64,000 nt of DNA from Burkholderiales bacterium (GCA_036274735.1 DASUFD010000053.1:19587-83586), one strand, 5' to 3'. Shown: positions 16,940-63,949, numbered from the stretch's first letter. A program made the numbers and translations. Notes: a model not told the origin generated them from the sequence alone.

Positions 16940-17015
16940 TGGGGTGGCCGATGGGACTCGAACCCACAACAACGGGGATCACAACCCCGGACTCTACCTT
17001 TGAGCTACGGCCACC
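16940..17015 (-). tRNA. tRNA-His (anticodon GTG)
   Basis: The reverse complement folds as a cloverleaf: encoded G-1, acceptor GTGGCCG/CGGCCAC, anticodon loop TTGTGAT, T-loop TTCGAGT, encoded CCA. Confidence 0.9.
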
Positions 17016-17024
17016 GTAGCGAAC

Positions 17025-17101
17025 TGGCCTGCCCGACAAGACTCGAACTTGTAACCCCCAGCTTAGAAGGCTGGTGCTCTATCCGGTTGAGCTACGGGCA
17101 G
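17025..17101 (-). tRNA. tRNA-Arg (anticodon TCT)
   Basis: Acceptor CTGCCCG/CGGGCAG, D-stem GCTC/GAGC, anticodon stem CCAGC/GCTGG with loop CTTCTAA, T-stem ACAAG/CTTGT, encoded CCA. Confidence 0.9.
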
Positions 17102-17150
17102 TCCGCGAGCAAGCAAGAGCAGTGCAAATTGCGAACACTACGCCGACGCA

Positions 17151-17228
<78 letters not shown>

Positions 17229-48110: not shown

Positions 48111-48803
48111 ATGTGCGGTCGTTACGCGCTCCACGCCCATTCCGAGGTCGTCGCGCTTCAGTTCCGCCTTGCGGCGGCGCCGGCTTTCGCGCCTCGCTAC
48201 AACATCTGTCCGGGTAGCGAGGTGCTCGCGGTGCGCGCCGACGAGCGCGGCCGCCGTAGCGTCGGCGAATTCCGCTGGGGCCTCATTCCGCATTGGGCGA
48301 AGGATGCGGCGATCGGACAGAAGCTCGCGAATGCGCGCGGCGAGAGCCTGGGCGAGAAGCCTGCATTTCGCGATGCTTTCCGGCGCTCACGCTGCCTCGT
48401 ACCCGCCAGCGGATATTTCGAGTGGCGCAGCGTGGCCGGGAGCAAACACCCCTGGTACTTGCGTCCCGCCGACGAACGGCTGTTCGCCCTCGGCGGCCTC
48501 ACCTCGCTCTGGCACGGACCCCAGGGGACGGTACGCAGCGTATCGCTCATCACCACGCCACCCAATCGCCTTACCGGGCCGATCCACGACCGTATGCCGC
48601 TCATCCTCGCCCCGCGCGACTACGACGCCTGGCTCGATCCGGGCAACGACGATGTCGAGGCCCTGAAAGCGTTGGTGCGCGCGTATCCGGCAGAAGAGAT
48701 GCGCGCGTACGCGGTGAGCCCGCGGGTTAATGCACCCGCCAACGACGATGCCGCGCTGATTGAGCCGCTTCCCGAGGGGCCGGCGCAGCGCGATTTGCTG
48801 TAG
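48111..48803 (+). CDS. SOS response-associated peptidase (SRAP/YedK-like abasic-site processing protein)
   Basis: ORF 230 aa. Invariant N-terminal 'MCGRY', then 'RYNICPGS', '[12 protein letters not shown]', 'NARGES', '[12 protein letters not shown]', 'HDRMPLIL'. Confidence 0.9.
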
Positions 48804-48813
48804 CGCCACCATA

Positions 48814-48829
48814 CTGTATATAATGCCAG
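48814..48829 (+). promoter_or_regulatory. LexA operator (SOS box) overlapping -10 hexamer of lexA
   Basis: CTGT-ATATAATG-CCAG, a CTGT-N8-ACAG consensus with one mismatch. An embedded TATAAT (48819-48824) lies 9 nt upstream of the lexA ATG. Confidence 0.8.
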
Positions 48830-48833
48830 TCCA

Positions 48834-49466
48834 ATGGATGCCGCGAACGCGCTCACCGCAAGGCAAGCCGAAATTCTGCGCTTGGTGCGCGAGCTGACCG
48901 AGGTGTCGGGCTACCCGCCGACCCGCGCCGAGATCGCCGAGCGCATGGGATTCCGCTCGGTGAACGCCGCCGAGCAACACCTGCGCGCGCTGGAACGAAA
49001 GGGCGCGATCGAGATCTCATCGGGCGCCTCGCGCGGCATCCGCGTGCGCGATGCCCGCGCGCCGACGCGGCGTCTGCTCGAGCTTCCCGTCGTCGGCCGC
49101 GTGGCCGCCGGCGCGCCGATCCTCGCCGAGGAGAACGTCCAGGGCCACTATCAGGTCGACCCGAACCTGTTCACGCCGCGCGCCGACTATCTGCTGCGCG
49201 TGCGCGGCATGTCGATGCGCGACGCCGGGATCCTGGAAGGCGACTTGCTGGCGGTGCACCGCACGCCGGAGGCGCGCAGTGGACAAGTTGTCGTCGCGCG
49301 CCTTGCCGACGAAGTCACCGTGAAGCGCCTGCGCCGTCGCGGCCACGTCGTGCAGCTCGAGCCGGAAAATCCCGAGTTCGCCCCGATCGAGATCGACCTG
49401 CGGCGCGAAGCGCTGGCCATCGAAGGCGTGGCCGTCGGTGTAATACGCAACGGCAAGGGCCTTTGA
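48834..49466 (+). CDS. lexA: LexA repressor
   Basis: ORF 210 aa. Winged HTH '[46 protein letters not shown]'. Cleavage site 'VAAGAP'. Ser/Lys dyad 'GMSMRDAGI' and 'VTVKRL'. Confidence 0.95.
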
Positions 49467-49504
49467 GAAGCCGATAGAATGGGCGCGGGCTCTTTCGCCT
49501 GCGC

Positions 49505-51340
49505 ATGAGCGATACCACGCTAGCCAACGGCGCCCCCAGCGCCGACCTCCGAAACCGCGCCGCACGCGAGGACATGAGCGCCGAAACGTTTTCGGCGCAG
49601 ATCCGCGATCGAGCCGATCCTCGTCTCGTGCTCGCAGACCGCGTCGAGCAGCTCTACAGCCAGCTGCCGCTGGGTATGGTCGCCACCCTCGCGATCGGCT
49701 TCATCGCCGCCGTCGAGCTGCGCGAAGGTCGCTTCATCGAGCTGGTGCTCTTTTGGAGCACGCTCCTCGTCGTGGTCGTTGCGCTGCACGCCGTGCTGTA
49801 CTTTGGCTACCGCCGCGACGCCGACAAGGTGGCGCAGGCGCCGCAATGGCTGCGCTGGCTTGGCATCGGCGCTTTCGCCGTCGGAGCGGTATGGGGATTC
49901 GCCGCCGCCGTGTTCTTTCCCTCTCATACGGACGAGCGGCAGGTCTTCCTCGCGTTCGTCCTCTCCGGGGTCATCTCCGGCGGCATCCCGATGTACGCCG
50001 CCTCCTGGCCGGTCTTCGCCGCCTACGCGGCCGCCATCGCCCTCCCCTTCACGTACGTGCTCGCCACCTTCGGCAACCGACTATTCGCCGAGATCGCGCT
50101 GCTCATTCCGCTCTTCTACGGCGCGAGCGTCGCCATCGCCTACCGGCTGAACGCGGTCTTCTTCTCGGGCTACCGGCTGCGACATGCCTATGGCCGCTTG
50201 ACCGAGGACTACAGCCTGCTCAATCGGCGGCTCGAGCGCCAGCTTGTCGAGCTCGAGGAAGCCCGGCGGCAGGTGGAGGCGAGCGGACGCAAGCTCGCCC
50301 TGTTCGCCGAGCGCGCGCCGATCGCCGTGCTCGAGCTCACCTCGGAGGCAACCGTGACGCAGATGAATCACGCAGCCGAGCTGCTTTTCGGCTATGCCGC
50401 CGGAGAGCTGATCGGCGGCTCGATCAAGCGCCTGGTGCTGCCGCAGTTCCAGGACGAGTTCGACCGGCAGTGGAGCGAGCTGATGTCCAGCCGCAGGCCG
50501 ATGGCCGGAGTCAAGGTGCGCAATCCGCGGCGCGACGGCATCTCGATCGTCTGTGAATGGACCGTGACGCCGCTCGTCAATGCCGAGGGCAGGGTGATCT
50601 CCGTGATCGCGCAGGGCCGGGACGTCACCGCGCAGCTCGAGGCGGAGCGCATGAAGAAGGAATTCACCTCGACGCTCTCGCACGAGCTACGCACGCCGCT
50701 CACCTCGATCATCGGCTCCCTGCAACTGATCAACGCCGGGGTGATGGGGGAAGTACCCAAGGACGTGGCCGAGCTGACCGACGTTGCCGAGCGCAACGGG
50801 CAGCGCCTGCTCGATCTGATCAACGACATCCTCGACATCGAGAAGATCGAGTCGGGCAAGCTCACCCTCGCTCCCGAGGCGATTCTCGTCGACGAGCTGG
50901 TGCAGGAGGCGATGGTGCTGAACAAGGGCTTTGCCGACCGGTTCAAGGTGCGCTTCGAGCCCGACGGGGCGCTCGCGAAGAGCGCGGTGCAGGCCGACCA
51001 CAAGCGGCTGCTGCAGGTCATGACCAACCTGCTGTCGAACGCCGCGAAGTTTTCCCCGGAGGGCGACGTCGTGCAGATCACCACGGAGGCGCGCGACGGC
51101 CGGCTTCGCATCGGCATTCACGATCGCGGCCCGGGGATTCCGGAAGCTTTCCGCGCGCGTATCTTCGGCCGCTTCAATCAGGCCGACTCGACCACCTCGC
51201 GACAGAAGGGCGGGACGGGCCTCGGCCTGGCGATCTGCAAGCGACTGATCGAGATGATGGACGGTAAGATCGGCTTCCAGGACCGCCCCGGCGGCGGCAC
51301 GACTTTCTGGTTTGAACTGCCATGCCTGAACGCCCGCTAG
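49505..51340 (+). CDS. membrane sensor histidine kinase (multi-TM N-domain, PAS, HisKA, HATPase_c; no receiver)
   Basis: ORF 611 aa with about 6 hydrophobic helices in the N-terminal third. Coiled coil 'LERQLVELEEARRQVE', PAS-like region, H-box 'FTSTLSHELRTPL', N box 'LLSNAAKFSP', G boxes 'HDRGPGIP' and 'GGTGLGLAICK'. Confidence 0.85.
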   Translation: MSDTTLANGAPSADLRNRAAREDMSAETFSAQIRDRADPRLVLADRVEQLYSQLPLGMVATLAIGFIAAVELREGRFIELVLFWSTLLVVVVALHAVLYFGYRRDADKVAQAPQWLRWLGIGAFAVGAVWGFAAAVFFPSHTDERQVFLAFVLSGVISGGIPMYAASWPVFAAYAAAIALPFTYVLATFGNRLFAEIALLIPLFYGASVAIAYRLNAVFFSGYRLRHAYGRLTEDYSLLNRRLERQLVELEEARRQVEASGRKLALFAERAPIAVLELTSEATVTQMNHAAELLFGYAAGELIGGSIKRLVLPQFQDEFDRQWSELMSSRRPMAGVKVRNPRRDGISIVCEWTVTPLVNAEGRVISVIAQGRDVTAQLEAERMKKEFTSTLSHELRTPLTSIIGSLQLINAGVMGEVPKDVAELTDVAERNGQRLLDLINDILDIEKIESGKLTLAPEAILVDELVQEAMVLNKGFADRFKVRFEPDGALAKSAVQADHKRLLQVMTNLLSNAAKFSPEGDVVQITTEARDGRLRIGIHDRGPGIPEAFRARIFGRFNQADSTTSRQKGGTGLGLAICKRLIEMMDGKIGFQDRPGGGTTFWFELPCLNAR

Positions 51341-51711
51341 AGCGCATCTGTTACGTCGAGGACGACGAGGACATCCAGCGGATCGTGCGCATGTCGCTCG
51401 AGCGCGTCGGCAAGATGACGGTGCAGATCATCACCGACCCCGGCGCCGCACTCGGCGCCATGGCGAGCTTCAAGCCCGATCTCGTCATGCTCGATTGGAT
51501 GATGCCGGGCATGGACGGCCCGACGCTTTTCCGCGAGATGAAAAAGCAGCCCGATCTCGCCGCGCTGCCCGTGGTCTTCATCACGGCGAAGGCCGGGCAG
51601 CGCGACCTCGATGAGCTGAAGAGCCTCGGCGCGGCCGGGACGATCTCCAAGCCCTTCTCGCCGAAGGACCTTCCTGAGCAGCTGCGCGCCATTTGGGCCA
51701 AGCTGCCCTAG
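51322..51711 (+). CDS. single-domain response regulator (CheY-like receiver)
   Basis: ORF 129 aa. 'YVEDDEDI', phospho-acceptor context 'DLVMLDWMMPGMDG', 'VVFITAK', 'ISKPF'. 19-nt overlap with the kinase gene. Confidence 0.85.
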   Translation: MPERPLERICYVEDDEDIQRIVRMSLERVGKMTVQIITDPGAALGAMASFKPDLVMLDWMMPGMDGPTLFREMKKQPDLAALPVVFITAKAGQRDLDELKSLGAAGTISKPFSPKDLPEQLRAIWAKLP

Positions 51712-51716
51712 CCGCG

Positions 51717-52982
51717 TCAGTGCAGCTTCACGGTGTCGTCAGCCACCGCGTCCGCGTCCTGCTCGAACTTGCGCGTCAGGAAACCGATGACCTCGTCGGC
51801 ATTGCGAAAGCGGGCTTCCCGGTCCTTCTCCAGCAGCTTGTCCATCAGACGCTGATACTGCTGTAGCGGCTCGGGCAGGGGCGGCGGCGTCTTGTTCAGA
51901 TGCTGCAGCGCCACCTCGACCGCGGAGTCGCCTTCGAACAGATGGCGCCCGGTGAACATCTGGTAGAGAAGCACTCCGGCGCTATAAATGTCGGTGCGCA
52001 GGTCGAGCGCCCGGCCCTGCACCTGCTCCGGGCTCATGTAACGCGGCGTGCCGAGCACCTCGCCGGCGCTCGTGCGGTCCACCGCGTCAACGTGCTTCGC
52101 GATGCCGAAATCGACAATTGCCAGGCTACCGTCGTCGCGGAACATGATGTTCTGCGGCTTGAGATCGCGATGCAGGATGCCTCGTTCGTGGATATCGCCG
52201 AGCGCGAACATGAGCTCGCGGAAAAGCCGCAGCGCCTCGGCCGCCGCCTGGGGCTTGCCGGCAAGGCGCTTGTTCAGATCGCCGCCTTCGAAGAACTCCA
52301 TCACCAGATAGGCGTAGCCCTCCACGTCGCCATGCCCGTAAATACGCGCCACGTGTCGGCTCTGAATGCGCTCGACGAGCGAGTATTCCTCCATGAAGCG
52401 CGCGAGCGCGTTCTTGTCGGACACGATCTCGCGTCGCAGGATCTTGACCACGAGCGGCGCGTCATCGCCTTCCTTGGACGCGAGATAGACCCTCGCCGTT
52501 CCCCCCTCGCCGATCAAATGCAGCACGTTGATGCCCGGGATCCGGATTTTCGCGCCGAGGTTGTGGCCCTCCAGCCGCGCTGCGAGCTCGGGCGACACCG
52601 TCCTTTCCACGGCGTCGGCCGTCAGCTCGTGGATCGAGGTGATGAGCTTCTCGCGCGTCATCTCCTGCTTGCGCTGATAGTCGTCGGCCCCCGCCTTCAT
52701 CGCGCGCACCGCGATGATTTCATTGCCGGCCCCGGTGAGGAACAGGACCTTCGGGCAGTCGGCCCGGGTCTTCAGCCGCTGCAGCCAGTCGAGGCCGTCG
52801 CCGCGGCCGAGCATATAGTCGAGGATGACCACATCGTAGGAACGGAGGGGAAAACCGGCGCCCGGAAAATCGCGCTCCAGCGGATCGTAACCATCCACTC
52901 CGGCGTCCGGCCAGCGCTGCTTGATATATCGCCCGAGGAGCTCGCGCAGGTCCGGGTCGTCGTCGATGATGAGCACGCGCAT
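51717..52982 (-). CDS. response-regulator receiver fused to Hanks-type Ser/Thr protein kinase
   Basis: ORF 421 aa. REC motifs: 'VLIIDDDPD', 'VVILDYMLG', 'LFLTGAG', 'DDYQRK'. Kinase motifs: 'IGEGGTARVY', 'VVKIL', 'HRDLKPQNIM', 'DFGIAK', 'GTPRYMSPE'. Confidence 0.85.
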   Translation of the reverse strand: MRVLIIDDDPDLRELLGRYIKQRWPDAGVDGYDPLERDFPGAGFPLRSYDVVILDYMLGRGDGLDWLQRLKTRADCPKVLFLTGAGNEIIAVRAMKAGADDYQRKQEMTREKLITSIHELTADAVERTVSPELAARLEGHNLGAKIRIPGINVLHLIGEGGTARVYLASKEGDDAPLVVKILRREIVSDKNALARFMEEYSLVERIQSRHVARIYGHGDVEGYAYLVMEFFEGGDLNKRLAGKPQAAAEALRLFRELMFALGDIHERGILHRDLKPQNIMFRDDGSLAIVDFGIAKHVDAVDRTSAGEVLGTPRYMSPEQVQGRALDLRTDIYSAGVLLYQMFTGRHLFEGDSAVEVALQHLNKTPPPLPEPLQQYQRLMDKLLEKDREARFRNADEVIGFLTRKFEQDADAVADDTVKLH

Positions 52983-52992
52983 GGCGCGCTAG

Positions 52993-53298
52993 TCACTCAT
53001 ACGCGATCTGCACGCGGGCGAGGTACTCGGCATATTCGGCGATCCGCGCCTCGAGCGATGCCCGGTCCCCGCTGCGCGCGCCGTCCTCGATGTATTTGCC
53101 GAGGATCGAGACTTGGGTGAAACCGTAGGAGTGGCCGACGCCTTTCATGCGATGTCCGAGCTGCCGCAACTGCTCGAAATCCGCTGCAGCGAGCGCCACG
53201 CGCAGGGTTTCGACCTCCTTGTTGCGGTTCTTGAGGAACACCGGGATGAGATCCTCGATGTCCCGCGCGACCGTGACCTTATAGTCGTTCTCGTCCAT
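52993..53298 (-). CDS. histidine phosphotransfer (Hpt) domain protein
   Basis: ORF 101 aa. 'DFEQLRQLGHRMKGVGHSYGF' matches the Hpt HxxKG phospho-His helix. Stop lies 10 nt upstream of the REC-kinase ATG. Confidence 0.7.
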   Translation of the reverse strand: MDENDYKVTVARDIEDLIPVFLKNRNKEVETLRVALAAADFEQLRQLGHRMKGVGHSYGFTQVSILGKYIEDGARSGDRASLEARIAEYAEYLARVQIAYE

Positions 53299-53349
53299 AT
53301 TCGCCGCATTATAGGCAGGGCAGTATCACAGCGGCGTTTCGACCGCCGG

Positions 53350-53868
53350 TCAGGGTTTGTCAGCCAGCACGTCGCGCGCCCGAGCGAGATGCGGATGCAG
53401 CGAAAGCGCCGCGGCGAAGGTGTAGCGCGCATCGGCGGATGCGCCTTCGCCGAGCAGTATTTCCGCGAAGTGCAACATCGCGGCGAAATGCCGCGGCTCG
53501 AGCGCGAGCGTACGCGCGATGTCGTGCAGGCATTCAGCGTCGCGACCGAGCAGGTAGTACAACGTGGCGCGCTTGTGCCATGCCTCGGGGAAGTCCGGCG
53601 TGCTGCGCAGCAGCCGGGTGAGACGCGTCTCGGCGATGTCGTAGCGCTGCGCGGCGATGTCGCGCGTCGCCGCGTCGAGCGCGGCGGCAGCGCCGGCGTG
53701 CGGGTGGTGCATCCAGGCGCTCCAGATGCGCTCTTCGGTCTCCTCCGCCTCCCCGGTCGGACAGCAGGCGAGACGACGGAAGAGTTGCGCAAGTCCCGGG
53801 AGATCCCGCGCGGGGCGACGCGCGCGGCGCTCGGCGATGAGGTTGAGGATTCCGCTCTCGGCCGTCAT
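53350..53868 (-). CDS. tetratricopeptide-repeat protein
   Basis: ORF 172 aa with high GC3. 'PDFPEAWHKRATLYYLLGRDAECLHDIARTLALEPRHFAAMLHFAEILL' are TPR-like helices. ATG lies 12 nt after the dnaE2 stop. Confidence 0.7.
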   Translation of the reverse strand: MTAESGILNLIAERRARRPARDLPGLAQLFRRLACCPTGEAEETEERIWSAWMHHPHAGAAAALDAATRDIAAQRYDIAETRLTRLLRSTPDFPEAWHKRATLYYLLGRDAECLHDIARTLALEPRHFAAMLHFAEILLGEGASADARYTFAAALSLHPHLARARDVLADKP

Positions 53869-53880
53869 CGAAGAGTGATG

Positions 53881-56862
53881 TTAATGGAAATCCCGGGAAG
53901 CCGCTGCGAGCGGCCCGAGCCAGGCGCTGTGGTCGACCAGGCGGCGCGCGACGAGATGCACGACGTCGGCGTCGCGCTCCACGATGCCGTGCACGCCGAG
54001 CAGCCGTGCACCGAGCAGCTCGTCCCGCTGGCGCTCGGCGAGCCGCGCCCAGACGACGATGTTGGCGCACCCGGTTTCGTCCTCGAGCGTGACGAAAATC
54101 ACGCCGCTTGCCGTATCGGGACGCTGCCGGCAGGTCACGAGGCCGGCGACGCTCGCCCGCGCGCCGTGCGGCAGCCGTCGCAGCTCCTCCGCGGTGAGTA
54201 GACCGCGCTTGCCGAAACGCTCTCGCAGCAAGGCGAGCGGATGGCGACCGAGCGTCAGGCCGAGGCTCGTGTAGTCGTCGGCGACGTCGTCACGTTCGCG
54301 CGGCGCGGCGAGCGAAGGTTGCGGCTCCGAGCCGAACGTCTCGAGCGGGGCCTGAACGGCGGCGCCGGCCGCGCTCCAGTGGGCGAGGCGCCGGTTCCCG
54401 GCCAGCGAGCCGAGCGCGGCGGCAGCCAGCGCTCGCAGGTCCTTGCGATTGAGCTGCGCACGTCGGGCGAGAGCCTCGACGTCTTCGTAGGGGCGGCGCG
54501 CGGCGATGCGCCTACCCGACGCCTCGGCGAGCCCGCGCACCATGCGCAAGCCGAGTCGAAGCGCCTTCTCCTCGAGCGTGCAGTCCCAGTCGCTCGCATT
54601 CACGTCCGGCGGGCGTACCTCCACGCCATGCCGGCGCGCGTCCTGCACGAGCTGCGCCGGGGCGTAGAAGCCCATGGGCTGGCTGTTGAGCAGGGCAGCG
54701 CAGAACGCCGCCGGATGGTGGCACTTGAGCCACGAAGAGACATACACGAGTAGCGCGAAGCTCGCCGAGTGGGACTCGGGAAAGCCGTACTCGCCGAAGC
54801 CGAGGATCTGCCGGTAGATGCCGTCGGCGAACTCGGCGCTGTAGCCGTTCACGCGCATGCCGCGCTTCAGCTTCTCCTCGAAGTGCTCGAGGCCGCCGCG
54901 CTTCTTCCATGCCGCCATCGACCGGCGCAGGGCATCGGCCTCGCCGGCCGAGAAGCCGGCCGCCACCATGGCGAGCTGCATGACCTGCTCCTGGAAGATC
55001 GGCACGCCGAGCGTGCGCTCGAGCACCTGCCGGACCGCGTCGCTCGGATACTCGACCGGCTCGGCCTCGCGTCGTCGGCGCAGATAGGGATGAACCATGC
55101 CACCCTGGATCGGACCCGGGCGCACGATCGCCACCTCGATGACCAGATCGTAATAGCTCGCGGGGCGCAGGCGCGGCAGCATGCTCATCTGCGCACGCGA
55201 TTCGATCTGGAAAACGCCCATGGTATCGGCTTTCTGGATCATGGCGTAAACCGCCGGATCCTCGGCCGGCACCTCGTGCATCTGCATTCCCAGCATCTGC
55301 AACGCTTTGCGAATTGCCGTGAGCATGCCGAGTGCCAGGACGTCCACCTTGAGGAGTCCGAGCGCCTCGAGATCGTCCTTGTCCCACTGGATCACCGTGC
55401 GCTCCGGCATCGCCGCGTTCTCGATCGGCACGAGCTCGCAGAGCGGCCCGCGCGAGATAACGAACCCGCCGGTATGCTGGGAGAGGTGGCGCGGAAAGCC
55501 GCGCAGCAGCTGCGCCAGCTCAAACCACGTCGCGGTTTCGGGCAGAGGGCCGTCCCAGAATGCGAAGCCCTTCGCCGTGCGCTCCACCTCATCGGGCGGC
55601 ACGCCGAGCGCCTTGCCCACGTCGCGCAACGCGCTCTTCGGCCGGTAGCAGATTACCGTCGCGGCAAGCGCCGCGCGACTACGGCCGTACTTGCCGTAGA
55701 TGTACTGGATCACTTCCTCCCGCCGCTCGTGCTCGAAATCGACATCGATATCCGGCGGCTCGTTGCGCTCGCGCGAAAGGAAGCGCTCGAAAAGCACGCT
55801 CATGCGCGCCGGATCCACCTCGGTAATGCCGAGGGCGTAGCAGACGACGGAGTTCGCCGCCGACCCCCTCCCCTGGCAGAGGATTCTCCGGCTGCGCGCA
55901 TAAGCGACTACGTCGTGCACAGTGAGAAAGAAGGGCTCGTAGCCGAGCTCGGCGATGAGCGCGAGCTCATGCTCGGCGGTCTCCCGCACCTTGTCCGGCA
56001 CTGCATTGGAAAAGCGCCGCGCGAGGCCCTCGGCGACCAGCCGGCGCAGCCAGGTGGCCGGCGTTTCGCCCGACGGCACGATCTCCTGCGGATACTCGTA
56101 GCGCAGCTCGTCGAGAGAGAACCGACAGCGCTCGGCGACGGCCAGCGTTTCGGCGAGCAGCTCCGCAGGATAGAGCTGAGCGAGACGCACGCGCAGCCGC
56201 AGGCTCCTCTCGGCGTTGGGAAAAAGCGCCTGGCCGCATTCGGCGACCGGACGCTTCAGGCGGATGGCAGTGAGGACATCCTGCACGCGGCGCCGCGAGC
56301 GCACGTGCATGTGCACATCGCCGGCGGCGACGAGCGGCAAGCCGTATTCTCGGCCCAGCGCCCGCAGCCGGGCGAGACGCATGCGGTCGTTTGGCCCGCA
56401 ATGCAGCTCGGCGGCGATCCAGGAGCGGCCGGCGAAATGCTCGGCGACCCAGCCGGCGGCGGGAAAGTCTTCGCCCGGGACCCAGAGCAGTAGGGCGCCG
56501 CTCCCCGACACTGCCGCGATATCCTCGCGTCGAGCGGCATATCGCCCTTTCCGGCTGCGCCGGCGCGCCTCGCTGATCATGGCGCTCAGAGCGCCATACG
56601 AGCGCCGGTCCGTGGCGAGGAGCACGAGCTTGAGGCCGTCTTCCAGCGTGACTTCGCTGCCGAGAATCAGCGGCAGGCCGAGCTCCTTCGCGGCCAGATG
56701 CGCGCGTACGGCGCCGGCGAACGAGCATTCGTCGGTCAGTGCGAGCGCTCGGTAGCCGAGCGCGCGGGCACGCGCCACGAGCTCTTCTGGATGGGAGGCA
56801 CCGCGCAGGAAGCTGAAGTTGGACAGGCAGTGCAGCTCGGCGTAATCAGGCAAACCAGCCAT
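53881..56862 (-). CDS. dnaE2: error-prone DNA polymerase DnaE2 (ImuC)
   Basis: ORF 993 aa. PHP N-terminus '[23 protein letters not shown]'. Pol III alpha core '[18 protein letters not shown]' and '[14 protein letters not shown]'. Follows imuA-imuB. Confidence 0.9.
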
Positions 56863-58018
56863 GTAGGTACCAATCGTCTTCTTCTCGATAGATCCACCCG
56901 AGCGCGCCCTGGAGGCGTGCGACGAAGTAGTCGCGGCGCGCCTCGTCTCCGTCCCACCAGCCGCACTCGATGCGCTCGGGCCCGGCTACCAGCTCGAAGC
57001 GGCCCGGCTCGAGACGGCGCGGCGGCTGGACGAGCCATGCCGGACGCGATCCCGGGGAGCGGAACTCGCGTGCATCCCAATCCCCGGGATCGATACGTCG
57101 CCACGCGTGCTCGGGGCGATGGTCCGGAATCGTCGTCACGCCATAGACGGCGTCTCGGCCAAGGCGCGCCTGGAGCCGCTCGAGGAGCTGCGCCCAGTCC
57201 TCGCTCTCGCCTGCGGCGTCGCCGAATAGCCCCCGGCTGCCTCCGGGAGCCGCCGCGAAGTCGGCGGCCTGAAGGCGAATCGCGTGGACCGGCTCGCGCA
57301 GATCGAGCATCGCCAGCCGCTCGCGAAGCAGGCGCACGAAACGCGCCGTTTCCCGTGATGGCGAGGCGAGATTCACGGGAACCGTTGTACCCGAGCCCCG
57401 GGCATCGATCAGACGCAGCGTGAACGTGCGTATTCCGGCATGGCGGGCGGCGAGCAGGCCTTCGAGCTGCAGAAGCAGCCGGCGTGCGGCGAAGAGGAGC
57501 GCCTCGGTTTGTATCACTTCCGCGGAGAGCTCGAGCTGCACGTCGAAGCGATCGGGAAGCGCGAAAAACTCGCGCGCCTCTTCTCGCAGGCCGCGCGCGC
57601 CGTCGAGCTCGTCCAGCACGCGCTTCGGGCAACGTCGGGCGAGGCCGGCGCGGGGCAGCTGCGCCAGATCGCCGAGCGTCGCGATGCCGATCGTGCGGAA
57701 GAAATCCAGTTCCCAACGGGTGACTTCCAGCGGCAGCGCGTCGAGGACAGCGCCGCTGCCGCGGGCGAGCCACAGCGCTGCGCGCGGCGTACCTGCCGTG
57801 GCGAGCGAAGCCTCGAGCCCGAGATCGGCGAGCCCGGCTCGCAGGGCTTCCAGCAGCGCCGGGAGGCCGCCGAAGTAGCGCAGGCTGCCGCCGACTTCGG
57901 CAAGCAGCGCATCGGGGCGCTCGAGAGAAACCCTAGGCGTGAACTGGCAAGCCCAGGCAGCGATCGCTTCGATCGTGGCGGGCGCGAGCTGGCGGAAGTG
58001 CAGGCCGACCCAGAGCAT
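56846..58018 (-). CDS. imuB: ImuB (Y-family polymerase-like, non-catalytic) protein, short form
   Basis: 390 aa from ATG 58018 ('[11 protein letters not shown]...'). '[20 protein letters not shown]' is an HhH-like segment. Position between imuA and dnaE2, with a 17-nt overlap with dnaE2. The upstream part of ORF 56846..58426 is non-protein-like. Confidence 0.75.
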
Positions 58019-58634
58019 GACGAGGTGAAGAAAGCGCGAGCCGCAGCACGGCGCCGGCGGAAGCGCCGCGGCGCTTGAGCAGCCGCACGACGAGCTCCGC
58101 CTCGCCGGGGTGTACCTCGAGCCGAAGCGCCGCCGGCGAACACTGACGCGCCGTTGCTGTCGGACGATAAAGGAAAGCGAGCGCGCGGCCCGCCTCGGCG
58201 GCAAGCGCAAGTCGCTGCAGCTCGATATAGCGCAGGCGTGGCAGCCAGGCGACCAGAGCGGCAATGACTCCGCTGCGCAGCACCTGCTCCGCGGCCCAAA
58301 GCGCATCCCGGGGCCGCTGCGGTTGCAGCACAACGAGCTGTGCGAGATCAACACCACCGGCAGCGAGCGCCGGCGCATAGGGAACGTGCGGCGGGGCGAG
58401 CCAAACGATGCGCTTGCCCGACGCACTGAGGGCGGCCAGGGCCCGTAGCACGAGCTCGAGCTCGCCGATGCCTTGGGCCTCGCCGAAGATCTCGGTCAGA
58501 TCGCCGGTCGGCCAGCCTTGGCCTGGAAGCGCGGCGTCGAGGTCCGGGAAGCCGGTGGCGATTCCCGGTAGCCAGTGCGCGATGCGCGATGCGCGCCACA
58601 CCGGCTGGGATTGCAGGATCTCTTCCACCGTCAT
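57933..58634 (-). CDS. imuA: ImuA (RecA/SulA-like SOS mutagenesis protein)
   Basis: ORF 233 aa. 'IATGFPDLDAALPGQGWPTGDLTEI', 'GIGELELVLRAL', 'RIVWLAPPH', 'LLKRRG'. First gene after a canonical SOS box. Confidence 0.75.
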   Translation of the reverse strand: MTVEEILQSQPVWRASRIAHWLPGIATGFPDLDAALPGQGWPTGDLTEIFGEAQGIGELELVLRALAALSASGKRIVWLAPPHVPYAPALAAGGVDLAQLVVLQPQRPRDALWAAEQVLRSGVIAALVAWLPRLRYIELQRLALAAEAGRALAFLYRPTATARQCSPAALRLEVHPGEAELVVRLLKRRGASAGAVLRLALSSPRHALGRPALPPARARHDRSDRCLGLPVHA

Positions 58635-58635
58635 G

Positions 58636-58651
58636 CTGTTATTATATACAG
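58636..58651 (-). promoter_or_regulatory. LexA operator (canonical SOS box) overlapping -10 hexamer of imuA
   Basis: CTGT-TATTATAT-ACAG, a perfect CTGT-N8-ACAG. On the minus strand TATAAT (58641-58646) is followed by 6 nt and then the imuA ATG. Confidence 0.85.
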
Positions 58652-58689: not shown

Positions 58690-59577
58690 TTACTCGCAGA
58701 AGAATTCGATCAGCTCGTTCGCCCTGGCGCGCGGCTGGCCGAACGCTATCCAGCCATGGCCTCGCAAAGTGAACTCCTCACGCCGCAGCACGATCTCCTT
58801 GTCGCCATCGATAGTAACGAACGTGCCGTTTGCGCTGTGATCCGTCAGGACGAACTTGTCCAGCCGGCGTTCGATCTTGCCATGCGCACGCGAGGCCATC
58901 CGTTCCCGGATGACAAGATCGGCAGACGGGTCGCGGCCCAGGGCAACGAACGGGCGTTGCGCCGAAAGCACGTACTCGTTGCCCTGCACGACGAGCCGAA
59001 GCTTGGAGTCCTTCGGCTTGTACGCCGACCTGTCCGATGCGAGGGTCGTCATGTCCTCGCTCTCCTGCCAAACCAGTTCGTAGACCGGGATTTCCTGCAC
59101 CCTGCCCTTCACCTCCATCGTCGTGATGGCGCGCGTCGCTGCCCTCAGCATCGGCGACATGAGCATCACGGTATCGCGCGCGGTGATGATCTGTCCCTTC
59201 GTCGCCACGCGCGCAAGGCGCGCCGCCACGTTGACGGCGTCGCCGAAGAGGTCGCCGTCGCGCTCGACGACGGGACCGAGGTTGAAGCCGATGCGGATGC
59301 CGATGCGCGTGTTGCCCACGGGCGTTAGCTCGGCAATCGCCCGTTGCATTTCGATCGCTGCAGCGGCCGCCGCATCCGCCGTCGCGAAGGTTGCCATGAC
59401 TTCGTCGCCGAGGGTCTTGACGACGCGGCCGTTCGCCGCGAGCGTCTTTTCGCGCATCAGGTTTACGCACTTTTCTATCGCGGCGTGCGCGACGGCGTCT
59501 CCGACGAGTTCGTAGAGCTTGGTGCTGCCGCTGACATCGGCAAAAAGAACCGCGGCTTCGCTCAAGTCCTCAGCCAT
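58690..59577 (-). CDS. class III adenylate cyclase with C-terminal FHA domain
   Basis: Cyclase motifs 'VLFADVSGST', 'KTLGDEVMATF', 'GDLFGDAVNVAARL' (Lys/Asp specificity pair suggests ATP). FHA motifs 'ALGRDPSADLVI', 'SRAHGKI', 'SANGTFV'. Start ATG 59577 preferred; ATG 59607 or TTG 59622 possible. Confidence 0.8.
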   Translation of the reverse strand: MAEDLSEAAVLFADVSGSTKLYELVGDAVAHAAIEKCVNLMREKTLAANGRVVKTLGDEVMATFATADAAAAAAIEMQRAIAELTPVGNTRIGIRIGFNLGPVVERDGDLFGDAVNVAARLARVATKGQIITARDTVMLMSPMLRAATRAITTMEVKGRVQEIPVYELVWQESEDMTTLASDRSAYKPKDSKLRLVVQGNEYVLSAQRPFVALGRDPSADLVIRERMASRAHGKIERRLDKFVLTDHSANGTFVTIDGDKEIVLRREEFTLRGHGWIAFGQPRARANELIEFFCE

Positions 59578-59620
59578 GTAGACCCGCCCGCTATGGCGCG
59601 CGGCCATTGTACGCAGCAGC

Positions 59621-59650
59621 AAAAAAAAGCGGGGCGCCGAAGCGCCCCGC
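59621..59650 (-). terminator. rho-independent terminator downstream of the ligD-ku-HTH/TPR-nuclease unit
   Basis: Minus strand reads GCGGGGCGC-TTCG-GCGCCCCGC (9-bp stem) followed by T8. Confidence 0.75.
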
Positions 59651-59749: not shown

Positions 59750-60136
59750 CTAATGCTTCGGCTTCTGCGTACGCGAAGAGCGCACAGTCACGCGATGGCG
59801 ATCACCGATCCATTGTGCTCCGCGCCCGGCACGCGGGCCAATGTCGCTCTGTTCGATGCGCCGTCCGTTGATGTATACCTCGGCGAGGAGCCGGCCGTAG
59901 CGATCGGCTCCGAGAGGACGAAGCGTCACCTCGCCGGAGGAAATGAGCGCGCGAAGCCGCTGCTTGGCCGCCGGCCCGTCCGCTTGATCGAGCTCCGCTG
60001 CATACACGTTCGTCAATCGCACCTTCTGTCGGTTGCACACCAGCGTGTCGCCATCGATGGCAATGCATCGTTCGCCGCAATGGACGGACGAGGCCGTGGC
60101 TGCGAGGGCGAGCGCGAGAAGGACTCGCCGGCTCAC
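59750..60136 (-). CDS. thermonuclease (staphylococcal nuclease-like) family protein, secreted
   Basis: ORF 128 aa. Signal peptide 'MSRRVLLALALAATASS'. SNase-like 'AIDGDTL', 'VRLTNVYAAE', 'DRYGRLLAEVYING'. 4-nt overlap with the upstream gene. Confidence 0.65.
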   Translation of the reverse strand: MSRRVLLALALAATASSVHCGERCIAIDGDTLVCNRQKVRLTNVYAAELDQADGPAAKQRLRALISSGEVTLRPLGADRYGRLLAEVYINGRRIEQSDIGPRAGRGAQWIGDRHRVTVRSSRTQKPKH

Positions 60137-60951
60137 TTGCCCGATTGCAGCAGGCGCCGGTACTGCGCCATGTAGCGAATGGCTTCGCGCGGTTTGCGAA
60201 GCGCTTCGGAGAGGAGCGCCAGGTTGTAGCAGCAGTCGGCGAAACGGGGATTGAGGCGCAACGCCGCTTCGTAGGCGTTGAAGGCTTCCTCCCGTCGCCC
60301 CAAGTCCTCTAGGACCAGGCCCAAGTTATAGAGTAGCCGCGCATCGTCGCCGGAGATGCGTAGCGCGCCGCGATAGGCCTGCTCCGCATCGGTCAGCCGC
60401 CCGAGCTGGTGTAGCAGCCGGCCCAAGTTGATCCCGGCCTCCGGCATTCCGGGCTCGAGGGCGAGCGCGTGCTCGTACGCCGCGAGCGCCGCCTCCGCAT
60501 CCGCGGCCTCGAGCGCCGCGCCCCGGTCGAACCAGTCGGCCGCCGAGGAGAGCTGTTCGCGGCGGCGCGTCTCCATTACGCGGAGAGAACCGTCGGCGGG
60601 ATTGCCGTGGAAGCGCAGCAGGTACTGCCCGGATTCGGCGTGCCATCGTGCCGTGCCCTCGCCCACCACCAGGTGATCGCCTTCGGCGCTGATGTTGAGG
60701 CCGGAGAGCGGCATGGCAGACGGCAGGCGCCGTCGCAGCTCCCTGATGGAGCGCATCACGCGCCGCGGCGAAACGTTGGCAGCGACGAGCGACTGCGCGG
60801 TACGAAGGACGATCAGGTCACGGAAGGAAAAACGCCAAGCGTTGCGCGGCCCGCGCGAGGGAGAGACGAAGCCGGCACGGATGAGCCGCCTGATCGTACC
60901 CGGGGCAAGTCGCAGAAGCTTGGCGGCCTCGCGCAGGCCGTAGTCCACCAC
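60133..60951 (-). CDS. excisionase/MerR-type HTH domain + TPR repeat protein
   Basis: 272 aa from GTG 60951 (1 nt after the ku stop) inside ORF 60133..61161. HTH 'GLREAAKLLRLAPGTIRRLIRAGFV'. C-terminal TPR repeats 'AEQAYRGALRISGDDARLLYNLGLVLEDLGRREEAFNAYEAALRLNP'. Confidence 0.65.
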   Translation of the reverse strand: MVDYGLREAAKLLRLAPGTIRRLIRAGFVSPSRGPRNAWRFSFRDLIVLRTAQSLVAANVSPRRVMRSIRELRRRLPSAMPLSGLNISAEGDHLVVGEGTARWHAESGQYLLRFHGNPADGSLRVMETRRREQLSSAADWFDRGAALEAADAEAALAAYEHALALEPGMPEAGINLGRLLHQLGRLTDAEQAYRGALRISGDDARLLYNLGLVLEDLGRREEAFNAYEAALRLNPRFADCCYNLALLSEALRKPREAIRYMAQYRRLLQSGK

Positions 60952-60952
60952 C

Positions 60953-61813
60953 TTATTTCTTGGCCGCCCTGCGCGCCGTGGTCTTCGCCGCGGCAGCCTC
61001 CGTCCCTTTGGGCGCTTGCGCTCGCTTGGCCGGCTTCTTTTCCAGGCTGGCGCGCAGCGCTTCCATGAGATCGATAACCTCGCCGCCCGCCGAGGGCGCC
61101 TCGGCACCCGTGATCTCCTGGCCTTCGATCTTCTTCTGCACCGCCGCTTCGATTCGCGCACGTACGTCGTCGCTGTACTGGGTGGGGTCGAACTTGTCCG
61201 CCGACTGTTGCTCGATCAGCTGCTGCGCGAGCTTGAGCTCGGCCGGCTTGACGTCCATGTTCGGAATCTCGATGTCGCGCAGCGAGCGCACTTCGCCGGC
61301 GTACAGAAGCTGCTGCATTACCAGACCTTCCACGAGGTCCTCGACGGGACGAATCATCACGATGTACTGCTTGCCGCGCGCCGCCCACCGGCCGATCGCG
61401 CAGCGGCCCGACTCGCGCAACGCTCGCGCGAGGAGCGCATATGGCTTCGCCCCGCCCTTGTCCGGACCGAGGTAGTAGGCCTTGTCGAAGTACACTGGAT
61501 CGACCGCCTTCAGCGGCACGAACTCGGTGATCTCTGCCGCGTGCGTGCCCGTTTCCTCCATGGCCTTCAGCTCTTCCGGAGTGAACATCACGTACTGGTC
61601 CTTGGCGAATTCGTAGCCCTTGACCATGTCTTCGCGCGGCACGACGACTTCTTCCTTGACGCAGACGTACTGCTGCTTCAACCGCGAGCCGCATGCCTTG
61701 TGCAGCAGATTGAAGGAAATGGCGCGGCTCGCCTCGGTTGCCGAATACAGCTTTACCGGGATGGAAACCAGCCCGAAGGACACAGTCAGCGAAGCGATCG
61801 ATCGCGCAGCCAT
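60953..61813 (-). CDS. ku: Ku protein (NHEJ DNA end-binding)
   Basis: ORF 286 aa. 'SLTVSFGLVSIPVKLYSAT', 'VKGYEFAKDQYV', basic Lys/Ala-rich C-terminal tail. GGGAGG SD upstream. Confidence 0.9.
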   Translation of the reverse strand: MAARSIASLTVSFGLVSIPVKLYSATEASRAISFNLLHKACGSRLKQQYVCVKEEVVVPREDMVKGYEFAKDQYVMFTPEELKAMEETGTHAAEITEFVPLKAVDPVYFDKAYYLGPDKGGAKPYALLARALRESGRCAIGRWAARGKQYIVMIRPVEDLVEGLVMQQLLYAGEVRSLRDIEIPNMDVKPAELKLAQQLIEQQSADKFDPTQYSDDVRARIEAAVQKKIEGQEITGAEAPSAGGEVIDLMEALRASLEKKPAKRAQAPKGTEAAAAKTTARRAAKK

Positions 61814-61873
61814 TCAAACCTCCCGAAATGGGCGAACATACGCGGGGAACGGATTGTAGTACAAAGGGATTTC

Positions 61874-63949
61874 TCAGGCACTGGGGACCTTGAGTGCCGC
61901 CTCCAGGCTAAACTTCCGGCTTAATGCCTCCTTCCACCGGTCGCCCGTCTGGCGCAGACGGTCGGCGGCGTTGGTGAGCCGAAAGTCCAGTGGATGCGCT
62001 CCCGCGAGCTCCTCCCAGGTAAGCGGCATCGAGACCGGGGCGCCCGCCGCTCCGCGCGGCGAGTAGGCGACGTTCAGGGTCTTGCCGCGCACGTTCATGT
62101 TGTAGTCCATGAATATCTTGCCGGTGCGCCTGGGCACGCTCCACTCCATGGTGATGTCCTTCGGATGACGCCGCATGAGGTGCCGGCCGACCAGCTCCGA
62201 AACCTCGCGCGCGGCGTCGAAGTCGATGGTGCGACGGATGGGTACAAAAACGTGCAGCCCGGTTTTTCCGGAGGTCTTCACCACCGCGTCGAGGCTCATG
62301 CTCAGCAGAAGCTCACGCAGGCGGAAGGCGACTTCCTTGCCTTTTTCGAACGCTACGGTGTTGAGCTCCGGCTCCTCACCGGGCTTCTCCTTCCCGGAAT
62401 AGACGTACGGGTCGATGTCGAACACCACGTAGTCCGGATAGTTGAGCACCGACGCCTCCAACGCGGCCAGCGAGCTCGCATATTCGGTCCTGCTGCTCTT
62501 CGCGTCGGGACCTGGCTTCGCACGCGAATGCCAGACGTGGAACTCTAGCGTGCCGGACTGGGCGAGCCAGAGCAGCGTCGGCAGATTGTTGCACAGGACA
62601 TAGCCGTGACTCTCGTCCTTGTGCTCGGAAAAGACCGTGATCGTCTCCACGAACGACGGCCGCGCCTGGTGCCAATGCTTCTGGAAGAAGCGCTGTCCCT
62701 CGATGCCCTCCGGCATCCGAATCATCGTCAACGGCCGGTCGGCCAGGTGCGGCAGCATGTAAGGCGAGACCTGCGCGAGGTAGCACAGCAGGTCGCGCTT
62801 GGTGAGGGCCGGTTGCTGGAGCGCACGGTCGGCAGGCCAGTACACTCGATCGAGATGGGTGAGGCGGATCTCATGGCCAGCTAGCGCGAGCGTGAACGCC
62901 GCCTTGCCGCTGCCGAGCTGCTCGAGGATGTCCGCGATCTCGCCCTTGGGTCTCGCCGCCGCGTCGCCGAGCGAAGGGCGGCGCACATCGGCGGCGGCGA
63001 TGTCATCGCGAAAACGGAGGAACACCGGCGCGCGCAGGCGGTGATCGTGCGTCCACCCCTGGAACTTGACTTCCGCCACGACCCTCGGTTCGACCCAGAC
63101 CGCGGGCGCGTTGAGCTCCGGATCTTCCGAGAATGGGTTGGTCTTGCGCTGCAGCGAGGCGAGAAGAAGCTTCGCCTCGGCGAGGCTGCGTGCGTCGAAG
63201 CCCGAGCCGACATGCGATGCGAAGTGAAGCTCGCCGTCCTGCCAATAGCCGACCAGCAAAGCCCCGAGCGAGGCGCGCGACCCCTTGCCCCTCGTATAGC
63301 CGCCGACAGCGAAATCGGCGCTGGCGAACGCCTTGATCTTCAGCCACGCGGCCGAGCGCTTGCCGGTTTCGTACACGCTGCTCTTGCGCTTGCCGATCAC
63401 GCCTTCGAAGCCGCTCGCCATCGCCGCCTTCTGCAGCGCAAGGCCGTCCTCACTCGCGTGCACAAGCTGCACCCGCGCGGAAGGTAGAAGGCATTGCGCC
63501 AGATAGCGCCGGCGGTCCGCGTAGGCCGATTTGCGCAGGTCGATGCCTGCGAAGTTCAACAGATCGAAGGCGTAGAAGACAGCGCGCTCGGCCCCGCTTG
63601 CGCGGTTCTGCATCGCCGCGAACGACGGCTTGCCGCTCTCGTCGAGCGCCACGATCTCCCCATCGAGAATCATGCCGTTCACCGCCTGCGCGGAAAGCTC
63701 GCCGACCAGGCGGGGGAAATCCGCACCGAGCTCCAGGCCGCGGCGCGAACGCAGTCGCACACCCCCCGCATCGATGAAGGCAAGCGCCCGGTAGCCGTCG
63801 AGCTTCGGTTCCCACATCCATTCCGGGCTGTTGAACGCGGACTTGCCCAGCTCGGCGTGCATCGGCGTCAGCTTCTCGGGCAAGGAGCGCACGTCGCCGC
63901 CCGGCACCAATCGCTCTGCCGGGATGCGATGAATCGGCACCGCGCTCAT
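61874..63949 (-). CDS. ligD: ATP-dependent DNA ligase LigD, two-domain form (ligase + polymerase/primase, no phosphoesterase domain seen)
   Basis: ORF 691 aa. Ligase motif I 'EPKLDGYRA', 'LDGEIV', 'EGVIGKR', 'WLKIK'. C-terminal LigD-Pol region 'LTHLDRVYWP', 'PLTMIRMPEGI', 'FFQKH', 'DYVVFDIDP', 'KTSGKTGLHVFVP'. Confidence 0.9.
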   Translation of the reverse strand: MSAVPIHRIPAERLVPGGDVRSLPEKLTPMHAELGKSAFNSPEWMWEPKLDGYRALAFIDAGGVRLRSRRGLELGADFPRLVGELSAQAVNGMILDGEIVALDESGKPSFAAMQNRASGAERAVFYAFDLLNFAGIDLRKSAYADRRRYLAQCLLPSARVQLVHASEDGLALQKAAMASGFEGVIGKRKSSVYETGKRSAAWLKIKAFASADFAVGGYTRGKGSRASLGALLVGYWQDGELHFASHVGSGFDARSLAEAKLLLASLQRKTNPFSEDPELNAPAVWVEPRVVAEVKFQGWTHDHRLRAPVFLRFRDDIAAADVRRPSLGDAAARPKGEIADILEQLGSGKAAFTLALAGHEIRLTHLDRVYWPADRALQQPALTKRDLLCYLAQVSPYMLPHLADRPLTMIRMPEGIEGQRFFQKHWHQARPSFVETITVFSEHKDESHGYVLCNNLPTLLWLAQSGTLEFHVWHSRAKPGPDAKSSRTEYASSLAALEASVLNYPDYVVFDIDPYVYSGKEKPGEEPELNTVAFEKGKEVAFRLRELLLSMSLDAVVKTSGKTGLHVFVPIRRTIDFDAAREVSELVGRHLMRRHPKDITMEWSVPRRTGKIFMDYNMNVRGKTLNVAYSPRGAAGAPVSMPLTWEELAGAHPLDFRLTNAADRLRQTGDRWKEALSRKFSLEAALKVPSA

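Follow-up and report, generated by a model that had tools for sequence, protein, structure and literature searches.

Between two SOS transcription units of a Burkholderiales bacterium, four signaling genes face each other tail to tail. On the plus strand, lexA is followed by a membrane histidine kinase (HK) and a stand-alone receiver (REC); on the minus strand, imuA-imuB-dnaE2 is followed by a TPR protein, a stand-alone Hpt protein and a receiver fused to a Hanks Ser/Thr kinase (REC-kinase). The locus lies in a 64-kb stretch of DNA (DASUFD010000053.1:19587-83586, GC content 64.8-72.8% per 2-kb bin), referred to below as the window, and raises the question of whether these genes form a single phosphorelay and whether their position couples it to DNA damage, as an earlier note on this DNA had proposed. 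The gene placement given there, both SOS boxes, the gaps of 38 nt (lexA-HK), 12 nt (dnaE2-TPR), 51 nt (TPR-Hpt) and 10 nt (Hpt-kinase), and the 5 bp separating the stop codons of the convergent receiver and REC-kinase genes were all confirmed; the gene layout was taken from an open reading frame listing and Pfam and NCBIfam scans (Table 1). The reading that we favor, and consider probable though well short of certain, is that the four genes would constitute one His-Asp-His-Asp relay, with each arm transcribed from a promoter of its own and the adjacency to SOS genes inherited within a lineage.

Parts of the putative relay and their recurrence

The catalytic motifs previously named in the HK (SHELRTPL), the Hpt protein (GHRMKG) and the kinase are all intact. 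The HK combines a cytoplasmic PAS domain with HisKA and HATPase_c domains (Pfam, 2.3e-19 and 3.3e-31), carries H393 within SHELRTPL and a complete set of N, G1, F and G2 boxes (NLLSNA, DRGPGI, FGRF and GGTGLGL), and has six N-terminal hydrophobic segments (residues 52-215); no receiver domain was detected in it by Pfam. The free receiver (Response_reg, 1.5e-23) retains the complete acidic pocket D14/D15/D58/T88/K110, and because its gene overlaps that of the HK, by 19 nt in the window and by 8 nt in the related locus L001, the two proteins are regarded as a cognate pair. In the Hpt protein (Pfam Hpt, 9.3e-10), the phosphorylatable H49 lies within GHRMKG; residues G48, H49, K52 and G53 are invariant in 10 orthologs across lineages, and the profile matches the solved HPt, ArcB and Ypd1 chains.

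The REC-kinase (Response_reg, 9.1e-17; Pkinase, 1.3e-47) is built from a receiver (residues 1-121), a linker (123-140) and a kinase domain (about 150-405). Its receiver pocket is D7/D8/D55/T83/K105, and its Hanks motifs comprise GEGGTARV (158-165), K180, E199 and HRDLKPQN (271-278; D273, N278), together with DFG (291-293; D291) and the APE-like motif SPE (317-319). These Hanks motifs are invariant in family alignments A1 and A5, and in 25 Hpt-linked orthologs neither the receiver pocket nor any Hanks catalytic residue varies. An AlphaFold model (predicted local distance difference test score, pLDDT, of 82) displays a canonical receiver, with pLDDT >90 over residues 1-80, a disordered linker and a kinase resembling PknB. 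Among solved chains, StkP, PknA and PknB come closest, their matches spanning the kinase domain only, and none of the top PDB matches is a structure with both a receiver and a Hanks kinase. The window protein is 100% identical to P0001/HEX4927085.1 from a Burkholderiales metagenome-assembled genome, and a search of representatives clustered at 50% identity returned one other close full-length cluster (78% identity) and more than 25 further full-length receiver-kinase clusters with 37-46% identity. Several distant members of the family (P0188, P0195, P0196, P0252 and P0268 among them) lack the phospho-acceptor Asp in alignment A1 and are pseudo-receiver-kinase fusions.

That HK, REC, Hpt and a receiver-output protein are the parts of a relay with Ser/Thr phosphorylation as its output, as the earlier note had argued from the parts list, is strongly supported by gene neighborhoods in other lineages and by domain fusions. 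The relay genes do recur together: in seven other-lineage loci (L005, L085-L089 and L091; REC-kinase identity to the window 37-50%), an Hpt ortholog of about 100 residues (39-44% identity) adjoins the REC-kinase. Three of these (L005, L086 and L089) present the order CHASE2 hybrid HK with fused receiver, Hpt, in some cases a receiver-class III nucleotide cyclase fusion (REC-cyclase), and REC-kinase, which on gene order is a textbook relay. The parts list of the window recurs in L091, where a non-hybrid GAF/PAS HK (39% identical to the window HK) is followed by a free REC, REC-cyclase, REC-kinase, Hpt and another free REC. Locus L087 contains REC-cyclase, REC-kinase and Hpt, then a free REC convergent to Hpt, and this receiver is the best match of the window REC outside its lineage (39.5% identity, E = 1e-29); L085 and L088 have REC-kinase followed by Hpt. 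The same domains are also found joined in single polypeptides, namely Hpt-REC-cyclase-REC-kinase (P0377, P0351), REC-cyclase-REC-kinase (P0141) and REC-kinase-Hpt (P0134), in which the domain order mirrors the gene order of the cassette. Taken together, the cassette of Hpt, REC-kinase and an optional REC-cyclase, fed by a hybrid or a split kinase, appears to be widespread, mainly in uncultured Burkholderiales with additional members in other Proteobacteria; the NCBIfam scan found no equivalog naming it.

A scan of genome contigs with the REC-kinase alignment was swamped by generic kinase motifs. At least six full-length REC-kinase loci were listed (L005-L010), no close relative of the window REC-kinase was among the matches listed, and tblastn did not find an Hpt, HK or SOS partner in L006-L010. 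A cyclase-like match is located near the REC-kinase in L006 and L007.

A metagenome scan with the Hpt alignment returned 80 loci with Hpt identities from 89% to 43% that were mapped by tblastn; linkage was counted among the 74 loci with an Hpt identity of at least 58%. These counts bear on an alternative that we judge unlikely, in which two unrelated systems happen to converge: the HK-REC pair would be self-contained, with a CheY-like output or a phosphate sink, and the Hpt and kinase would be fed by a distant hybrid kinase. Such a division would fit with the two arms being separate convergent transcription units between which an HD-GYP gene can sit, and with the Hpt donor in three other lineages, which is the CHASE2 hybrid kinase and not a split HK and REC. 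The window REC, moreover, resembles the hybrid-kinase receivers preceding Hpt elsewhere only weakly (about 25% identity). However, the convergent receiver is present in 21 of 21 evaluable loci and the HK-REC arm accompanies Hpt in every one of them, including L160 and L164, which have no REC-kinase. The L087 receiver that converges on Hpt, and the related non-hybrid PAS kinase and free receivers that flank the L091 cassette, likewise argue against two systems, and no hybrid kinase was seen in the window in a search that was not exhaustive.

The weak receiver similarity weighs against a single relay as well as for two systems, and two further points stand on the same side. L160 and L164 keep the HK-REC-Hpt core without REC-kinase or REC-cyclase, so the REC-kinase would be a non-obligatory endpoint, and partner specificity is deduced from gene linkage. 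The genomic support for the relay partnership is about as strong as such support can be, the phosphotransfers themselves being predicted from it.

Within the lineage, a closer subclade has the TPR gene, and a deeper subclade has the order dnaE2-Hpt-REC-cyclase-REC-kinase, often with a DUF3391/HD-GYP gene (HHERxDGSGYP motif) after the REC-kinase. In L160 and L164 this HD-GYP gene directly follows Hpt (with a 4-nt overlap in L160), replacing REC-cyclase and REC-kinase. The REC-cyclase that most relatives possess is missing in the window, which might be taken as a sign that this genome carries a cassette in decay or without function, its adjacency being incidental. This we find scarcely credible, because all four open reading frames are intact with every catalytic residue in place, the relay proteins share 75-88% identity with their counterparts in many relatives, where the spacing is conserved too, and at least 14 other loci likewise have the REC-kinase directly after Hpt.

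Under the single-relay reading, the membrane PAS HK would autophosphorylate at H393; the phosphoryl group would then move to D58 of the free receiver, whose translation is coupled to that of the HK, onward to H49 of the Hpt protein, and finally to D55 of the REC-kinase, changing the activity of the Hanks Ser/Thr kinase. In most relatives, Hpt would additionally feed the REC-cyclase encoded between Hpt and the kinase, with HD-GYP following, and this cyclase branch would have been lost in the window. Since FHA domains read phospho-threonine, FHA-domain proteins encoded just upstream of imuA are possible partners of the REC-kinase and, more speculatively, candidate substrates.

Position beside the SOS genes and transcription of the two arms

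Whether linkage to dnaE2 and lexA recurs depends on the lineage. It does so in the lineage of the window, where 61 of the 62 evaluable loci have dnaE2 or the TPR gene directly upstream of Hpt and lexA lies beyond the HK in 14 of 14; elsewhere it is found in none of seven, imuABC, lexA and an SOS box near the cassette being absent from all of the other-lineage loci. The link to SOS is further weakened by L162, in which Hpt (63% identity) is an orphan, and by the pncB/MFS/acetyl-CoA-hydrolase flank beyond lexA, which is conserved equally well. Because this housekeeping flank is kept to the same degree, the SOS-adjacent arrangement is, as judged from synteny, an inherited feature of one family-level lineage. 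The TPR gene of the closer subclade (L092-L131) starts -14 to +16 nt from the stop codon of dnaE2. It is absent from most of the deeper subclade (L138, with a gap of 45 nt, is an exception) and is not part of the relay cassette of other lineages; it resembles a fourth member of the imuA-imuB-dnaE2 operon that is specific to the lineage.

The two hexamers that the earlier note had entered as caveats, TATAAT before Hpt and TAGAAT in the lexA-HK gap, are both present, and no other non-coding features of the locus proved as well conserved. TATAAT occurs only three times in the window, close before the start codons of lexA, Hpt and imuA (Table 1); the lexA and imuA copies are embedded in LexA boxes, the Hpt copy is not, and all three genes are without a Shine-Dalgarno sequence. 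This layout suggests that the three mRNAs are of leaderless type, making the locus a clean natural example of such promoters in a GC-rich betaproteobacterium. The Hpt TATAAT shows no variation across 35 distinct TPR/dnaE2-Hpt gap sequences while its surroundings diverge; it lies 6-12 nt from the ATG in 29 of them and is kept even where the TPR reading frame runs across it. It is therefore read as a predicted leaderless-type promoter for Hpt and REC-kinase.

On the lexA side, the hexamer position is occupied by TAGAAT, TATAAT, TACAAT or TATAAA in 17 of 17 distinct related sequences. The statement that no hairpin follows lexA was wrong: a GC-rich stem ends exactly at the HK ATG, with a folding energy of -16.8 kcal/mol with flanking bases (-15.4 for the trimmed segment, z = -3.4). 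A hairpin begins 0-3 nt after the hexamer in all 17 sequences, each of which folds better than its shuffles (mean z = -3.5), and the stem sequence covaries between relatives while the position remains fixed (window; L001-L003, L093, L110-L153). A transcript starting from the HK hexamer would lack the left stem arm, so that the hairpin can form only in lexA read-through RNA, where it probably serves as a terminator without a T-tract, as an attenuator or lexA 3′ end, or as a mask of the HK start.

Between dnaE2 and Hpt the picture is less uniform. A terminator hairpin between TPR/dnaE2 and the Hpt -10 was sought as a consistent feature and turned out to be inconsistent (mean z about -1, clear in some loci); dnaE2 and Hpt are separated by a clear intrinsic terminator in two distant relatives, L159 and L160. 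No T-tract terminator was detected in any gap by a consensus scan. LexA boxes before HK or Hpt were found neither in a scan of the window nor in the lexA-HK and dnaE2(TPR)-Hpt gaps of related loci. The sequence CTGTGATACTGCCCTG near the Hpt promoter was considered as such a box and rejected, having two mismatches from the consensus and no conservation in relatives. The TPR-less subclade has a conserved TTTGACAA roughly 30 nt before the Hpt TATAAT, with GCAAAC or GTCAAAC some 20 nt further on (dnaE2-Hpt gaps of L133, L140, L142, L143 and L145-L154). It is too far from the TATAAT for a -35 element and could instead bind a regulator or form the base of a stem.

These observations favor arms that are self-promoted. 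The HK arm would start at its own conserved -10-like hexamer, followed by the hairpin, and the Hpt arm at its own LexA-box-free TATAAT, arranged in the leaderless-type manner seen at lexA and imuA. The SOS neighbors would contribute at most a supplementary input, by transcription from the imuA promoter continuing into Hpt and kinase. Speaking against this part of the reading, no -35 hexamer was found 17±1 nt from the Hpt TATAAT, and the promoter assignments of both arms rest on conserved hexamers. The TPR-Hpt gap of the window, furthermore, has no significant terminator or hairpin before the Hpt -10, so that read-through from the imuA promoter could be substantial.

Another alternative is a relay that is truly SOS-coupled, with both arms mostly read through from the LexA-repressed lexA and imuA promoters and DNA damage raising kinase levels. 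Tight packing of same-strand genes downstream of both SOS promoters would allow this, as would gaps that have no T-tract terminator and, from TPR to the Hpt -10 of the window, no significant hairpin. The TPR gene is, from its spacing to dnaE2 (-14 to 16 nt in nearly all relatives with the gene; 45 nt in L138), clearly predicted to be co-transcribed with it, and 61 of the 62 evaluable loci preserve the arrangement despite a variable flank upstream of imuA. Nevertheless, we regard this alternative as unlikely. HK and Hpt are without a LexA box, promoter-like -10 elements are conserved before both arms, the conserved hairpin separates lexA from HK, and L159 and L160 have an intrinsic terminator after dnaE2. 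Without a Shine-Dalgarno sequence, Hpt may also be poorly translated from read-through mRNA. The linkage is missing from all seven other-lineage loci, and within the lineage its conservation is no greater than that of the neighboring housekeeping flank.

The proposed SOS coupling thus finds no support beyond adjacency, given the missing LexA boxes, the arms' own -10 elements, the hairpin after lexA and the restriction of the linkage to one lineage. A functional coupling of any form is rather improbable, and the link to DNA damage is unproven because the arms have conserved promoters of their own and, in other lineages, the cassette and SOS genes are far apart. One specific version, to which we give distinctly low credence, is that the imuA promoter reads through dnaE2(-TPR), that damage would thereby lift the dosage of the output branch above a constitutive leaderless level, and that kinase, cyclase and HD-GYP would modify mutasome, repair or FHA proteins. 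If true, it would amount to a LexA-gated SOS branch of Ser/Thr phosphorylation and cyclic-nucleotide signaling that merges an environmental signal sensed by PAS with DNA damage. More generally, a functional SOS adjacency would add a post-translational signaling branch to the SOS response of Proteobacteria, which on present evidence is a minority reading.

Flanking genes

The relay genes and their neighbors are collected in Table 1. The gene next to the HK arm scores 234 bits with the NCBIfam lexA equivalog model, above its cutoff of 111, and the unit at 53881-58634 on the minus strand is a LexA-boxed imuA-imuB-dnaE2 SOS mutagenesis operon; ImuB of such operons is an inactive Y-family polymerase. 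Apart from the two boxes, TACTGTATATAATGCCAG and TACTGTATATAATAACAG, no AT-rich CTG-N10-CAG site occurs in the 64 kb, and a CTGT-N8-ACAG box is present upstream of imuA in all 14 related loci that reach that point.

Table 1. Coordinates of the relay genes, their control elements and their neighbors (window positions unless a related locus is named)
Feature	Position	Strand	Remarks
SRAP (YedK-like) gene	48111-48803	+	Pfam; 30 nt upstream of lexA, SOS box within the gap
LexA box TACTGTATATAATGCCAG	48812-48829	+	overlaps TATAAT -10 at 48819-48824 (9 nt before lexA ATG)
lexA	48834-49466	+	Pfam LexA_DNA_bind and Peptidase_S24; context, outside the relay
-10-like hexamer TAGAAT	49475-49480	+	in lexA-HK gap
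GC-rich hairpin	49483-49504	+	8-bp stem, 6-nt loop; ends at HK ATG
PAS-HisKA-HATPase membrane sensor HK	49505-51340	+	non-hybrid; Pfam
Stand-alone receiver	51322-51711	+	129 aa; Pfam Response_reg; overlaps HK gene
REC-kinase (receiver-Hanks Ser/Thr kinase fusion)	51717-52982	-	421 aa; Pfam Response_reg and Pkinase
Stand-alone Hpt protein	52993-53298	-	101 aa; Pfam Hpt
TATAAT before Hpt	53308-53313	-	perfect match; 9 nt before Hpt ATG; no LexA box
TPR protein	53350-53868	-	172 aa; follows dnaE2
dnaE2	53881-56862	-	Pfam domains
imuB	about 56846-58018	-	assigned by position and a weak IMS_C match (E = 0.006)
imuA	57933-58634	-	NCBIfam equivalog, 208 bits against a cutoff of 150
LexA box TACTGTATATAATAACAG	58653-58636	-	overlaps TATAAT -10 at 58641-58646 (6 nt before imuA ATG)
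DUF3391/HD-GYP gene in related loci	L134 7348-8544; L138 8709-9956; L142 12701-13918; L153 12704-13903; L160 2090-3331; L164 338-1576		

The neighborhood of the window locus is rich in DNA-damage genes, including the SRAP gene beside lexA. Beyond imuA (59750-63949, minus strand), these comprise genes for an SNase-like protein, a MerR-HTH/TPR protein, and Ku and LigD, a non-homologous end-joining cluster. Directly upstream of imuA, the window encodes a class III cyclase-FHA protein (58690-59622, minus strand). The counterpart position in L001 and L112 is occupied by a type VI secretion FHA protein (TagH/Fha), and an unannotated gene at the same position in L002 is probably the counterpart of these FHA genes (upstream-of-imuA genes: L001 3093-4295; L002 1992-3227; L112 3-632, 867-3473 and 3553-4695). 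L001 and L002 also encode TagF, TssM and TssL, and L112 encodes a PpkA-like Hanks kinase of 868 residues.

Away from the lineage of the window, in the lineage with the CHASE2 hybrid kinase, the REC-kinase gene of L086 and L089 is followed after 60-90 nt, in the same orientation, by mfd (L086 11411-14827; L089 11427-14852), the gene for the transcription-repair coupling factor. This adjacency to a DNA-repair gene is possibly due to chance. It was considered, along with a recQ gene near the cassette in L085, as an independent link to DNA repair, and both were rejected, such cases being too few and mfd too ubiquitous. A tRNA cluster (tRNA-His, tRNA-Arg(TCT), tRNA-Pro(TGG)) is located at 16940-17228 of the window on the minus strand.

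Relation to known systems

Response regulators with a eukaryotic-like Ser/Thr kinase output are known from genome censuses. Searches of the literature retrieved no experimental study of a receiver-Hanks-kinase fusion, no paper describing the Hpt, REC-cyclase and REC-kinase cassette, and nothing relevant on an SOS-linked two-component system. The cassette is thus apparently an unstudied variant of the multistep phosphorelay with a predicted Ser/Thr-kinase output. Conserved and defined well enough to be testable, it consists of Hpt, REC-cyclase and REC-kinase with input from either a hybrid kinase or a kinase and receiver encoded separately, and it physically connects cyclic-nucleotide signaling with the two major phosphorylation systems of bacteria.

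The mutagenesis cassette imuA-imuB-dnaE2 has been described under LexA control (for example PMC3901139, PMC5261740), and the flanking operon of the window is a typical LexA-boxed unit of this kind; in the titles and abstracts of the papers retrieved, no TPR, Hpt or kinase genes are reported downstream of it. Precedents for what an SOS-linked kinase might do are provided by B. subtilis YabT (PMC3708118) and D. radiodurans RqkA (PMC6052341), Hanks kinases that, where DNA is damaged, act on proteins of recombination or cell division. DNA binding activates YabT (PMC3708118), and RqkA carries a WD40 domain (PMC6052341); unlike the REC-kinase of the window, neither has a receiver domain or a phosphorelay input.

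A functional likeness is also seen in P. aeruginosa, where hybrid kinases signal through HptB to HsbR, which acts on HsbA (PMC2904497, PMC5085249), and the diguanylate cyclase HsbD intersects this cascade (PMC5085249). The HptB pathway shares with the locus a stand-alone Hpt protein that would address a response regulator controlling protein Ser/Thr phosphorylation instead of DNA binding, and the cyclase and HD-GYP genes in relatives of the window echo the HsbD connection. The two differ in their donor, which in the window would be a split HK and free receiver and not a hybrid kinase, and in the missing partner-switch (STAS) gene at the window locus. The outputs differ as well, the window having a Hanks kinase in place of a PP2C phosphatase and an anti-sigma-type kinase. 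HsbR itself joins a receiver to both a PP2C phosphatase and a Ser-kinase module.

In yeast, the Sln1-Ypd1-Ssk1 relay controls the mitogen-activated protein kinase kinase kinases Ssk2/Ssk22. The window relay would resemble it in its His-Asp-His-Asp order and in a last receiver that controls a Ser/Thr kinase, and its Hpt protein has the four-helix fold of Ypd1 and ArcB with the HxxKG motif. However, the receiver and kinase form one polypeptide here, whereas the yeast receiver binds a separate kinase, and the first receiver is free here and fused to the kinase in Sln1.

In the Spo0 relay of Bacillus, which proceeds from KinA through Spo0F and Spo0B to Spo0A, a transcription factor forms the output, and the phosphotransferase Spo0B is no Hpt-fold monomer. 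With this and other split four-protein relays, the window locus shares a non-hybrid kinase, a free single-domain receiver, a separate His-phosphotransferase and a terminal receiver-output protein. Unlike that of Spo0, its predicted output is enzymatic and, in relatives of the window, would branch into a kinase and a cyclase.

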